Positions 10,389 through 19,453 of a DNA stretch of 64,000 nt are shown here, piece after piece. The notes beneath the pieces are model-generated. The model was not told where the DNA came from and ran no database searches. It worked only from the letters and a program-made list of their open reading frames with translations. Location: NCBI RefSeq assembly GCF_054482525.1, contig NZ_CM137006.1; one strand, 5' to 3'. A program made the translations under genes and the position numbers. Each line of letters opens with the position of its first letter. Positions within the stretch are counted from its first letter, which is position 1.

Positions 10389-10413
10389 CTTGTAGGCCGG
10401 ATAAGGCGTTTAC
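10389..10413. repeat. left half of a REP/PU split by the IS insertion (ends in TAC target duplication)
   Basis: gtaggccggataaggcgtttac immediately before the IS left end; right half gccgcatccggc follows the IS. Confidence 0.8.
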
Positions 10414-11321
<908 letters not shown>

Positions 11322-11845
11322 TCCAGGAGATGCTCCTGCATGGCTTTCAGATATGCATTTTCTGCGCGAAGATAACGCAGCTCATTCTTCATCTCTTCCG
11401 GCGTCATGTTTGCCTCGTTTTCATGGGTATCATCAGAACGGGTCATGCTTTTCTCCTTCCTGCGCCTGATAAAGGCCTCATTACCAGATTTGCGGTAGCC
11501 TTTTATCCAGTTTTTAACCGTGTTGTGGCTGGGAATGTTAAACCGGGCAGCTACCCGGGGTAGAGACTCAGAATGCCCGAGAGCATAAAGAACCACGCAA
11601 AGTTTATCTTCAGGAGAATAGCTACGCTTGTGTCTGCAATCCAGTGCCCGAGGACCGTGAAGAAGAAAAAGATTAATCCAGTGTGAGAGGCTGGTGTGAG
11701 AAAGTTGAAAGAGTTTTGCCGTAGAAATGATGCCTGCATGACCAGCCAGGTAGTGATTTACAGCGGCAAGTTTTACTTCAAATGAATGTTTCATAAACTG
11801 CACCTTCAGATGTCAGATTATGTCCAACATTTGGGGTGCAGTTCA

Positions 11846-11868
11846 TACGCCGCATCCGGCATGAAACG
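11846..11868. repeat. right half of the REP/PU split by the IS (starts with TAC duplication)
   Basis: tacgccgcatccggcatgaaacg. Confidence 0.8.
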
Positions 11869-11979: not shown

Positions 11980-12097
11980 CTTACTATCTTACAAATGTAA
12001 CAAAAAAGTTATTTTTCTGTAATTCGAGCATGTCATGTTACCCCGCGAGCATAAAACGCGTGAATTCGCGCATTCGGTACAACAAGAGAGATAAACG

Positions 12098-13414
12098 ATG
12101 AAACCGTTACATTATACAGCTTCAGCACTGGCGCTCGGACTGGCGTTAATGGGGAATGCACAGGCAGTGACGACCATTCCGTTCTGGCATTCTATGGAAG
12201 GGGAACTGGGTAAAGAGGTGGATTCTCTGGCCCAACGTTTTAACGCCGAAAACCCGGATTACAAAATTGTACCGACCTATAAAGGCAACTACGAACAGAA
12301 TTTAAGCGCGGGGATTGCCGCATTTCGTACCGGCAACGCGCCTGCTATTTTGCAGGTTTATGAAGTTGGCACCGCCACCATGATGGCGTCGAAGGCCATT
12401 AAACCGGTGTATGACGTGTTTAAAGAGGCGGGGATTCAGTTCGATGAGTCGCAGTTTGTGCCGACGGTTTCAGGCTACTACTCCGACAGCAAAACCGGCC
12501 ACTTACTCTCCCAGCCGTTCAACAGCTCGACTCCCGTTCTCTATTACAACAAAGACGCCTTCAAGAAAGCCGGTTTAGACCCGGATCAGCCGCCGAAAAC
12601 CTGGCAGGATCTGGCGGACTATGCCGCAAAACTGAAAGCCTCCGGTATGAAGTGCGGCTACGCCAGCGGCTGGCAGGGCTGGATCCAACTGGAAAACTTT
12701 AGCGCCTGGAACGGTCTGCCGTTTGCCAGCAAAAACAACGGCTTTGACGGCACAGACGCGGTGCTGGAGTTCAACAAGCCGGAGCAGGTGAAACACATCG
12801 CTATGCTCGAAGAGATGAACAAGAAGGGCGATTTCAGCTACGTCGGGCGTAAGGATGAATCCACTGAGAAGTTCTATAACGGTGATTGCGCGATGACCAC
12901 CGCCTCTTCCGGTTCTCTCGCCAACATTCGCGAGTACGCCAAATTTAACTACGGCGTAGGCATGATGCCTTACGACGCCGATGCGAAAGATGCGCCACAA
13001 AACGCCATTATCGGCGGAGCCAGCTTGTGGGTAATGCAGGGTAAAGATAAAGAAACTTATACGGGTGTGGCGAAGTTCCTCGACTTCCTCGCGAAGCCAG
13101 AAAACGCTGCCGAGTGGCATCAGAAAACTGGTTATCTGCCAATCACCAAAGCGGCGTATGACCTGACCCGTGAGCAGGGTTTTTATGAGAAAAACCCAGG
13201 GGCGGATACCGCGACGCGTCAGATGCTGAATAAGCCGCCGTTACCGTTCACCAAAGGGCTGCGTCTGGGCAACATGCCGCAGATCCGCGTGATTGTGGAT
13301 GAAGAGCTGGAGAGCGTGTGGACCGGTAAGAAGACGCCACAGCAGGCGCTGGATACCGCCGTTGAGCGTGGGAATCAGTTACTGCGCCGCTTTGAGCAGT
13401 CTACGAAGTCTTAA
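12098..13414 (+). CDS. ugpB: sn-glycerol-3-phosphate periplasmic binding protein UgpB
   Basis: 438-aa ORF with signal peptide [23 protein letters not shown]. Confidence 0.95.
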
Positions 13415-13420
13415 TTCTCT

Positions 13421-13567
13421 TACCCTCACCCTAACCCTCTCCCAAAGGGAGAGGGGACCGATCGGCGTGGTATCCAGGTGCCGTGTCGGTTTGCAACTTC
13501 GCTCGGTGGGAAAGTATGCACCGCCTTTCTCCCTCGCCCCTCTGGGGAGAGGGCCGGGGTGAGGGGA
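13421..13567. repeat. GC-rich nested inverted-repeat element between ugpB and ugpA (boxC/RSA-like intergenic repeat)
   Basis: ccctcaccc-ccctctccc-aaa-gggagaggg at the left edge mirrored by cccctctggggagaggg-ggggtgaggg at the right edge. Confidence 0.5.
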
Positions 13568-13589
13568 ACACAACACGAAGAGTTTAACT

Positions 13590-14477
13590 ATGTCATCATC
13601 CCGTCCGGTGTTCCGCTCGCGCTGGCTGCCCTATTTGCTGGTCGCGCCGCAGCTCATCATCACCGTTATCTTTTTTATCTGGCCTGCGGGCGAAGCGTTG
13701 TGGTACTCGCTGCAAAGCGTCGATCCGTTTGGTTTCTCCAGCCAGTTTGTCGGCCTGGATAACTTCGTCACGCTGTTTCATGACAGCTACTATCTCGACT
13801 CCTTCTGGACGACGATAAAATTCAGCACCTTTGTCACCGTCAGTGGTTTGCTGGTGTCGCTGTTCTTTGCGGCGCTGGTGGAGTACATCGTGCGCGGCAG
13901 CCGTTTCTATCAAACCTTGATGCTGCTGCCGTATGCCGTGGCTCCCGCCGTTGCCGCCGTATTGTGGATCTTCCTGTTTAACCCTGGTCGCGGGCTGATC
14001 ACCCATTTTCTCGCTGAGTTCGGCTACGACTGGAACCACGCGCAAAACAGCGGTCAGGCGATGTTTCTGGTGGTGTTTGCCTCGGTGTGGAAGCAAATCA
14101 GCTACAACTTCCTGTTCTTCTATGCCGCGCTGCAATCCATTCCCCGTTCGTTGATCGAAGCCGCAGCCATCGACGGTGCAGGCCCGATTCGCCGCTTCTT
14201 TAAGATTGCGCTGCCGCTTATCGCTCCGGTGAGTTTCTTCCTGCTGGTGGTGAACCTGGTATACGCCTTCTTCGACACCTTCCCGGTGATCGACGCCGCC
14301 ACGTCCGGCGGGCCGGTTCAGGCCACCACGACGCTGATTTATAAGATTTACCGCGAAGGCTTTACCGGACTGGATCTGGCTTCGTCTGCCGCGCAGTCGG
14401 TGGTGTTGATGTTCCTCGTCATCGTGCTGACGGTGGTGCAGTTCCGCTATGTTGAAAGCAAGGTGCGTTACCAATGA
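13590..14477 (+). CDS. ugpA: sn-glycerol-3-phosphate ABC permease UgpA
   Basis: 295-aa polytopic ORF. Confidence 0.94.
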
Positions 14478-15319
14478 TTGAGAACCGTCCGTGGCTGACA
14501 ATATTCAGCCATACCATGTTGATCCTCGGGATCGCGGTGATCCTCTTCCCGCTGTACGTGGCGTTTGTCGCGGCGACGCTGGATAAACAGGCCGTCTATG
14601 CCGCGCCGATGACGCTCATCCCCGGCACACATCTGCTGGAAAATATCCACAACATCTGGGTGAACGGGGTAGGCACGAATAGTGCGCCTTTCTGGCGGAT
14701 GTTGCTTAACAGCTTTGTGATGGCGTTCAGCATTACGCTCGGCAAAATTACCGTCTCGATGCTCTCGGCATTTGCCATTGTCTGGTTTCGTTTTCCGCTG
14801 CGTAACCTCTTCTTCTGGATGATTTTTATCACTCTGATGTTGCCGGTTGAAGTGCGTATTTTCCCGACGGTGGAAGTCATCGCCAATCTGAAGATGCTCG
14901 ACAGCTACGCCGGCTTAACGCTGCCGCTGATGGCCTCGGCGACCGCCACCTTCCTGTTCCGCCAGTTCTTTATGACGCTGCCGGATGAGCTGGTGGAAGC
15001 TGCGCGGATCGACGGCGCGTCACCAATGCGTTTCTTTTGCGACATCGTTTTTCCGCTGTCCAAAACCAATCTGGCGGCGCTGTTTGTGATCACCTTTATC
15101 TACGGCTGGAACCAGTATTTGTGGCCGTTGTTGATTATTACCGATGTGGATCTCGGCACCACCGTAGCAGGGATTAAAGGGATGATCGCCACAGGCGAAG
15201 GCACCACGGAATGGAACTCGGTGATGGCGGCGATGTTGTTAACCCTGATCCCACCAGTAGTGATTGTTTTAGTGATGCAGCGTGCCTTCGTGCGCGGCCT
15301 GGTCGATAGTGAGAAATAA
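14474..15319 (+). CDS. ugpE: sn-glycerol-3-phosphate ABC permease UgpE
   Basis: 281 aa; ATGA overlap with ugpA. Confidence 0.94.
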
Positions 15320-15320
15320 G

Positions 15321-16391
15321 ATGGCAGGACTGAAATTACAGGCAGTAACCAAAAGCTGGGATGGCAAAACCCAGGTCATTAAACCGCTGACCCTTGATGT
15401 GGCGGATGGCGAATTTATCGTGATGGTCGGGCCGTCTGGCTGCGGGAAATCGACGTTATTGCGAATGGTGGCCGGACTGGAGCGGGTAACGACGGGCGAT
15501 ATCTGGATCGACCGCAAGCGTGTCACCGAAATGGAGCCGAAAGATCGCGGGATTGCGATGGTGTTTCAGAACTACGCGCTTTATCCGCATATGAGCGTCG
15601 AAGAAAACATGGCGTGGGGGCTGAAAATTCGCGGCATGGGCAAGCAGCAAATTGCCGAGCGCGTTAAAGAAGCGGCGCGCATTCTGGAGCTGGACGGCCT
15701 GCTTAAGCGCCGCCCGCGTGAGCTATCTGGCGGTCAGCGTCAGCGTGTGGCGATGGGGCGTGCGATTGTGCGTGAGCCGGCAGTGTTCCTGTTTGATGAG
15801 CCGCTCTCTAACCTCGATGCCAAGCTGCGCGTACAGATGCGTCTTGAACTGCAACAGCTGCACCGTCGCCTGAAAACGACTTCACTCTACGTTACTCACG
15901 ATCAGGTTGAGGCGATGACGCTCGCCCAGCGAGTAATGGTGATGAACGGCGGCGTTGCCGAACAGATTGGCACGCCAGTTGAAGTCTACGAAAAGCCCGC
16001 CAGCCTGTTTGTGGCGAGTTTTATTGGCAGTCCGGCGATGAATCTGCTGACAGGCCGCGTGAATAATGAAGGCACGCATTTTGAACTGGACGGCGGTATC
16101 GTGCTACCGCTAAACGGTGGCTACCGTCAGTATGCCGGGCGTAAAATGACTCTCGGCATTCGCCCGGAACATATTGCGCTAAGCTCGCAGGCAGAAGGCG
16201 GCGTACCGCTGGTGATGGACACGCTGGAGATCCTCGGCGCTGATAATCTGGCGCACGGACGCTGGGGCGAACAGAAGCTGGTGGTGCGACTGGCGCATCA
16301 GGAGCGCCCGACGGCAGGCAGCACGCTGTGGCTGCATCTGCCGGAAAATCAGCTGCATCTTTTTGATGGTGAAACAGGACAACGAGTATGA
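15321..16391 (+). CDS. ugpC: sn-glycerol-3-phosphate ABC ATPase UgpC
   Basis: Track ORF 15282..16391 trimmed to [15 protein letters not shown] (356 aa); Walker [10 protein letters not shown]. Confidence 0.93.
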
Positions 16392-19426: not shown

Positions 19427-19453
19427 AAGCCCTCTCCCGATAGGCGAGGGCTT
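19427..19453. terminator. hairpin between convergent ggt and yhhY (candidate bidirectional terminator)
   Basis: aagccctc ... gagggctt stem. Confidence 0.5.

Follow-up and report, generated by a model that had tools for sequence, protein, structure and literature searches.

An inverted BoxC pair in the ugpB-ugpA spacer of Escherichia coli, at the position where most genomes carry a REP pair

Within the window, a stretch of 64,000 nucleotides (NCBI RefSeq assembly GCF_054482525.1, contig NZ_CM137006.1), two genes of the ugp operon lie side by side on the plus strand: ugpB (12098..13414), which encodes the periplasmic sn-glycerol-3-phosphate binding protein, and the permease gene ugpA (13590..14477). 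Both were taken from the list of open reading frames and from the RefSeq annotation of CFSAN018748, whose ugpB region is identical. The ugpB stop codon TAA occupies positions 13412-13414 and ugpA starts at 13590, which leaves a spacer of 175 bp. An earlier inspection of the letters alone (the sequence-only reading) had described this spacer as almost entirely a symmetric inverted-repeat structure, and the description proved accurate: all motifs that it quoted are present, and 13423-13565 consists of two inverted modules on either side of a core, which measures 75 nt rather than the ~100 bp that had been estimated. A repeat search returned inverted arms of 42 nt at 13415-13456 and 13532-13573 (71% complementary, 75 nt apart), as well as a perfect local hairpin, CCCTCTCCC-AAA-GGGAGAGGG, at 13435-13455. 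The GC content is 65% in the element and 53% in the window. Considering the absence of regularly spaced direct repeats, the remark that the element is not CRISPR-like holds as well.

BoxC is a dispersed, G/C-rich intergenic repeat of the Enterobacteriaceae, and its naming, together with that of the PIT element, reportedly goes back to Bergler and Bachellier in the 1990s and to Hoyne and Maher in 2000. Under the later name TM_ECO the family has the consensus CCCTCNCCC-N3-6-GGGNGAGGG-N3-GGGNGAGGG, and its units are of type A when the second loop reads TTA and of type B when it reads CCG (Holder et al. 2015, PMC4666352). According to the same study, K-12 contains 23 units, and at five sites these form inverted pairs, each made up of one A and one B. 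The HPG1 and HPG2 motifs of Kaplan et al. (2016, PMC5100583) represent the same family; they often occur as pairs on opposite strands and have a C-rich 5' flank that is conserved. In Petrillo et al. (2008) BoxC figures among the known stem-loop families of E. coli, with a length of 56 bp and 32 copies. The consensus, searched as CCCTCNCCCN3-6GGGNGAGGGN3GGGNGAGGG, matched exactly at two places, 13423-13455 on the minus strand and 13531-13565 on the plus strand, and nowhere else in the 64 kb; in dinucleotide shuffles of the window the number of matches expected by chance was 0.00. The second loop reads TTA in the left unit (TAA on the plus strand) and CCG in the right unit, which makes the former a type A unit and the latter a type B unit with a mismatch. 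Membership of the family is thus apparent from the consensus, the loops, the inverted A and B pairing, the multi-copy termini and the intergenic site, and the spacer element is an inverted BoxC pair (PIT element, TM_ECO, HPG1/HPG2) of one type A and one type B unit. The suggestion that it was a boxC-like, small structured intergenic repeat was therefore correct, because both ends match the BoxC consensus exactly. Given that it is a textbook pair, a canonical member of the family in a known configuration, the ugp element is of a kind that was already known and adds no new one. Holder et al. count 63 TM loci; within the portion of their supplements that was searched, neither ugp nor the two exact unit sequences were found.

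From left to right, an 8-nt flank, TTCTCTTA (13415..13422, plus strand), separates the ugpB stop codon from the element and is weakly complementary to 13566-13573. The type A unit (13423..13455, minus strand) reads CCCTCACCC-TAA-CCCTCTCCC-AAA-GGGAGAGGG on the plus strand, with the complement of the third repeat at 13423-13431 and next to it the perfect hairpin, of 9 bp. It is followed by the inner extension GACCGATCGGCG (13456..13467, plus strand), which is conserved in the family beside the hairpin side of type A units, as judged from the K-12 copies and from other genera: the motif recurs in the K-12 lldD-trmL copy, on the outside of the four inward K-12 pairs and in the ugp alleles of other genera. 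The adjoining part of the core (13468..13519, plus strand) is specific to the locus, with no repeats elsewhere according to the genome matches and no significant structure when folded alone. Then comes a second inner extension, ACCGCCTTTCT (13520..13530, plus strand), with the TTTCT that is conserved in the family 5' of type B hairpins. The type B unit itself (13531..13565, plus strand) is an exact consensus match with one stem mismatch, CCCTCGCCC-CTCTG-GGGAGAGGG-CCG-GGGTGAGGG, and constitutes a canonical G-quadruplex motif on the mRNA strand; in a scan for G4 patterns both units were recovered as canonical motifs. The right flank (13566..13589, plus strand), single-stranded in the centroid fold, contains a putative ugpA Shine-Dalgarno sequence, GAAGAG, at 13577-13582, 7 nt before the ATG, and has a homologous counterpart in the Kluyvera BoxC allele described below.

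The five K-12 pairs were scanned and showed two arrangements. Those in hrpB-mrcB, upstream of fepB, in ygfF-gcvP and downstream of alx are inward, with the order B then A, the third repeats facing each other and 18-29 nt between the units. The pair in lldD-trmL is the only outward one, with the third repeats outermost, the hairpins innermost and a core of 59 nt. On the far side of each hairpin there is a conserved extension, TTTCT 5' of the B-type and GAC(C/T)G..CGG.GC 3' of the A-type. In inward pairs the extensions are on the outer side, in outward pairs they are enclosed between the units. The window pair is in the rarer, outward arrangement and has lldD-trmL as its nearest relative, with near-identical units and extensions and a divergent core. 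It is like the K-12 copies in its consensus ends, in having A and B on opposite strands, in its intergenic location and in being polymorphic among strains; it differs in that K-12 has no BoxC at the ugp locus and in that its core of 75 nt is longer than that of any K-12 pair. With HPG1/HPG2 it shares the sequence family, although Kaplan et al. (PMC5100583) read the G-rich strand as a G4 switch, whereas in the window G4 stands for a motif only.

Of the 5426 complete E. coli genomes, 4508 contain partial matches to the 161-nt element, at a median of 3 and a maximum of 8 places per genome. The view of the element as a repeat with other copies in the genome thus stood for its termini, but not for the element as a whole, which is not repeated: the 74-nt core (13457-13530) was recovered from 317 of the 5426 genomes, in one place each, always on the chromosome and only at ugp. 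A query that included both coding flanks was covered for at least 80% in 317 genomes, the same number as for the core, and the K-12 spacer with its flanks was covered for at least 80% in 5105. On the basis of these counts, 317 genomes with a BoxC allele versus 5105 with a REP allele, the ugpB-ugpA spacer of E. coli is dimorphic rather than uniformly conserved, and the BoxC allele is in the minority (~6%). The K-12 spacer measures 97 bp, is unrelated in sequence and consists of an inverted REP pair that forms a 24-bp hairpin (-49.4 kcal/mol, z = -6.7), which starts 9 nt past the stop codon. Carriers of the BoxC allele include PCN033, one ST38 strain and one ST70 strain, and a variant of it occurs in strain N3, with a deletion of 7 nt in the right hairpin arm and other sequence in place of part of the core. 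In E. coli SCPM-O-B-8794 (L010, ~1401-1500) a third spacer allele was observed, a REP pair of 100 bp. Its left REP is more like that of Citrobacter youngae than that of K-12, while the UgpA of this strain is 100% identical to the window protein.

Through most of ugpB and ugpA the window diverges from K-12 by 0-5% per 100 nt, in the last ~100 nt of ugpB by 9% and in the spacer by ~40% (gapped). Over the last 30 nt of ugpB the window differs from E. cloacae at 1 position and from K-12 at 3, too few sites to be given weight. The recent import of a large foreign segment was ruled out, the remaining coding flanks being far closer to E. coli than to other genera. Further downstream, a stretch of ugpC (15409-15800) shows 10-11% nucleotide divergence from K-12 and from N3, compared to 0-5% in the rest of the operon; this stretch may be a recombination tract.

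The spacer RNA was predicted to fold with a minimum free energy of -83.9 kcal/mol, against a shuffle mean of -63.9 (z = -4.8), and 0 of 200 dinucleotide shuffles were as stable, in line with the structured character that had been read from the letters. The core folded alone yielded z = -0.54, by which the possibility that it forms an independent structured RNA was ruled out. A pairing between CUCUU at 13417-13421 and AAGAG at 13578-13582 appeared in the minimum free energy structure only and was absent from the centroid structure. The predicted hairpin is long and very stable and leaves the ribosome-binding region of ugpA free. Scans of 13415-13589 returned no sigma-70-like promoter and, on either strand, no terminator-like site (a hairpin followed by a T-run). 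When the covariance models of Rfam 15 were run over 12000-15000 at E <= 1, no family reached its gathering score; the sole match, at chance level, was to whalefall-1, whose gathering score is 37 and which reached 17.7 bits (E = 0.34).

To extend the comparison to other species, one genome per species was scanned with UgpA, which gave 80 loci, and the spacers were cut from the ugpB stop to the ugpA start. An outward pair with A on the left and B on the right was found in the ugp spacer of at least six other Enterobacteriaceae lineages: a Pseudocitrobacter MAG (L012), Pluralibacter sp. UBA7423 (L017), Kluyvera genomosp. 1 (L020), Superficieibacter electus (L024), Enterobacteriaceae RIT691, in which the right arm is one nt short (L025), and Enterobacter cloacae DSM 26481 (L049). 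In the BoxC alleles of these six lineages the left unit lies 9-15 nt past the ugpB stop, and in five of the six the right unit ends 22-30 nt before the ATG, the exception being L025, whose right unit was unmatched by the scan. Between the two units lie 21 to 209 nt, and where the core is longer it is made up of tandemly repeated copies of a hairpin with its extensions, most clearly so in Superficieibacter and visibly in Kluyvera and Pluralibacter. In Superficieibacter (L024, ~1193-1500) the core comprises two tandem units of ~120 nt, each with a hairpin remnant, GACAGTCCGGCGC, ~90 nt and GGTTTTCT, and Kluyvera (L020) and Pluralibacter UBA7423 (L017) have shorter versions of this pattern. Within the BoxC family an internal module can apparently be amplified in tandem, and there appears to be a modular grammar, in which a hairpin is combined with TTTCT or a third repeat on the left and with GACNGNNCGGNGC or a third repeat on the right.

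Other species carry REP pairs in the spacer, among them E. albertii, Pseudocitrobacter faecalis, several Citrobacter species, Pseudescherichia and Cedecea. Both allele classes were found within Escherichia and within Pseudocitrobacter, in the latter case in different species. A hybrid was encountered in Leclercia adecarboxylata (L022, ~1346-1500), where a single type A BoxC unit with a degenerate third repeat, CCCTCATCC, lies between the two REP units of a BIME, which suggests that BoxC units may insert into or recombine with REP clusters. The spacers of Enterobacter BIGb0383 and Pluralibacter gergoviae contain collapsed hairpins that resemble BoxC remnants and that fit the 'palindrome effect' deletions described by Holder et al. 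(PMC4666352). Most of the spacers are structured: among 75 species with spacers of at least 30 nt around 85% had z < -2, and the median z in the Enterobacterales was -3.7 (both against mononucleotide shuffles). The distance from the ugpB stop to the start of the main structured domain is no more than 15 nt in 41 of the 49 Enterobacterales. Like the window element, the BoxC alleles of E. cloacae and Pseudocitrobacter fold into a single long hairpin with the outer third repeats at its base; their z is ~ -7. The stem sequences of the BoxC alleles are nearly invariant across genera and, because of this near-invariance, offer essentially no covariation that could prove an RNA helix. The sole paired change, from CCCTCACCC/GGGTGAGGG to CCCTCTCCC/GGGAGAGGG, an A/T to T/A change in the third repeats, was found in Pluralibacter UBA7423 (L017) and, by eye, in RIT691 (L025); a triplex requirement or gene conversion would account for it equally well. 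The invariance of the stems could reflect a constraint on the DNA sequence or concerted evolution.

Among the other known repeat systems, REP/BIME elements as in the K-12 ugp spacer and in malE-malF are alike in several respects. They have the same position, ~9 nt past the ugpB stop codon with the ribosome-binding site left free, the same build of two inverted units that form one long hairpin, and a presumed role as intercistronic mRNA stabiliser that would be shared. The window hairpin is stronger (-84 versus -49 kcal/mol) and the sequences are unrelated. Identity with REP was rejected, as the palindrome of the GCCGGATG...CATCCGGC type that characterizes REP (PU) is lacking and the alignment with the K-12 spacer stops at the coding flanks. 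REP elements are mobilised by enzymes of the RAYT family; for BoxC we know of no mobilising enzyme or cognate transposase. MITEs such as ERIC/IRU, Correia and RU-1/2/3 resemble the ugp element in being shorter than 200 bp, in having terminal inverted repeats (in the window the 42-nt arms given above), an intergenic location and a long stem-loop, and in varying by presence and absence. The flanks TAATTCTCTTA and GAACACAACACG share no direct repeat that would point to a target-site duplication and, because the core is single-copy and such a duplication is absent, a full-length MITE was ruled out. The RU-1, RU-2 and RU-3 of Delihas (2007) correspond to ERIC, YPAL and a REP-based repeat, and identity with these was likewise rejected, as they are not BoxC. 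RSA (BEE95), a 152-bp enterobacterial repeat, is similar in size (~150 bp) and intergenic.

Given its structure and position, we infer a REP-like function for the ugp BoxC pair. The pair sits where a strong intercistronic hairpin is maintained, and there is in our estimation an even chance that it protects the ugpB mRNA in the manner of a REP element and decouples it from ugpAEC. In the polycistronic ugp mRNA the C-rich left unit would pair with the G-rich right unit to form a hairpin of around -84 kcal/mol, extending from 8-11 nt past the ugpB stop to 24 nt before the ugpA AUG and sparing the ribosome-binding site. The role of this hairpin would be that of the REP hairpin in most E. coli, namely to block 3'-to-5' exonucleases, so that the ugpB segment would outlive ugpAEC and more binding protein than permease would be made. 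An effect on mRNA stability or polarity had also been suggested by the sequence-only reading, and the conserved structure at the site supports it indirectly. REP elements are reported to act as stabilisers in malE-malF, in work ascribed to Newbury et al. in Cell in 1987. Considering that the hairpin is so close to the stop codon, a modulation of ugpB translation termination is possible in addition; REP elements within 15 nt of stop codons are said to affect translation, as Liang, Rudd and Deutscher are credited with showing in Mol Cell in 2015. At the DNA level, hairpin, triplex, G4 or cruciform forms may arise, and the literature ties such forms to local instability, which would explain the variable core length and the variable allele. 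A literature search on REP elements or mRNA stability at ugp returned nothing usable. Several points count against a REP-like function: hairpins are frequent downstream of a first cistron, for a variety of reasons; the nearly invariant stems offer no covariation in favour of an RNA helix; the z-scores of the 75 spacers come from mononucleotide shuffles; and PIT elements showed neither promoter nor terminator activity in tests, while TM_ECO positions bear no relation to gene function or ORF distance (PMC4666352). More tentative, and in our opinion rather doubtful, is the wider notion that the ugpB-ugpA spacer represents an old, cross-genus dimorphism in which REP and BoxC hairpins are interchangeable alleles.

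The most serious alternative is that the pair is a neutral or selfish repeat without a role in ugp, at a hairpin-rich intergenic site that tolerates or attracts repeats, the dimorphism and the variable core length then being a matter of the instability of such sequences. We regard this as possible, though less likely than not. It agrees with the observation that BoxC loci are unusually variable among E. coli strains, with no function established (PMC4666352). The cores moreover expand, contract and collapse, as seen in the tandem duplications (L024, L020, L017) and the collapsed remnants (L021, L027), the Leclercia unit between two REPs suggests insertion into existing repeats rather than selection for BoxC, and the type of ribosome-binding-site flank and the type of element are not strictly linked across genera. 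A neutral repeat would, however, hardly be expected to keep the same position and orientation in seven lineages (the window included), with A on the left in all of them and 9-15 nt past the stop, and with a type B or B-like right unit 22-30 nt before the ATG in six of the seven (where measurable). Neither does it account for a spacer site that is essentially never empty in Enterobacteriaceae and for significant structure in 85% of species.

A further explanation places the significance of the element in the DNA: a non-B structure, be it an intrastrand triplex, a G-quadruplex/hairpin switch or a cruciform, which is recognised by a protein or disturbs replication or transcription, the ugp position being incidental. 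We consider this unlikely, even though the sequence itself, beyond its pairing, is invariant across genera, both window units are canonical G4 motifs and every pair combines A and B, which gives a 3x3 mismatch bubble in any cruciform. Experiments on the family agree with it: for oligonucleotides of the TM_ECO consensus, Holder et al. present evidence of triplex formation from CD and NMR and from a DMS footprinting assay in vivo (PMC4666352), and the HPG motifs undergo a K+/Mg2+-dependent switch between G4 and hairpin, as followed by CD (PMC5100583). Neither a binding protein nor an in vivo phenotype has, however, been reported for BoxC (PMC4666352), and the unrelated REP elements or simple hairpins at the same site in other strains and species are left unexplained. 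That the element serves as an intra-operon terminator or attenuator, giving polarity between ugpB and ugpAEC, is highly improbable. It would suit this reading that the first cistron is directly followed by a GC-rich hairpin of great stability, and in Pluralibacter gergoviae the spacer has a short hairpin followed by TTTTT; in the window, however, on neither strand is the hairpin followed by a T-run (GGGGAACACAACACG lies downstream), and the spacer contained no terminator-like site. In addition, Holder et al. cite Hoyne and Maher for PIT elements without promoter or terminator activity and without an effect on RNA polymerase or reverse transcriptase (PMC4666352).

What the locus adds to the description of the family is the precise allelic replacement of REP by BoxC within an operon, at a position that is conserved across genera, and a modular core that can be expanded in tandem. 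The replacement amounts to a natural experiment on BoxC function, considering that REP-type stabilisers are the classical explanation for an excess of binding protein over permease at such positions in operons. If REP and BoxC were interchangeable, a BoxC pair would be equivalent to REP in function, as an intercistronic stabiliser or decoupler of mRNA, and BoxC would gain a function after thirty years. The long, short, collapsed and hybrid forms in the various genera also provide material on how BoxC grows, shrinks and spreads.

Two other features of the window touch on the same types of sequence. A hairpin, gccctctcccgataggcgagggc, lies at 19429-19451, just past the end of an open reading frame (probably ggt), and resembles the stem of the BoxC hairpin. 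A second BoxC copy at 19430-19450 was ruled out because the third repeat is absent from this simple hairpin, which is probably an ordinary terminator-type stem-loop. Upstream of ugpB, the window contains a copy of IS1397 (IS3 family; 10393-11862, with ORFs at 10446-11168 and 11273-11803 on the minus strand) within a REP unit of the livF-ugpB BIME. IS1397 targets the loops of REP elements, and the junctions here read gtaggccggataaggcgttta / IS / acgccgcatccggcatg. The region is 100% identical to that of PCN033 and SCU-102. In strain N3 (L091, 834-1429) a toxin-antitoxin pair of the phd/doc type occupies the livF-ugpB gap where the window has IS1397, making this gap a second variable spot. Pho-regulated expression might be influenced by the insertion, which is situated 5' of the ugp promoter region and ~240 bp before the ugpB ATG.
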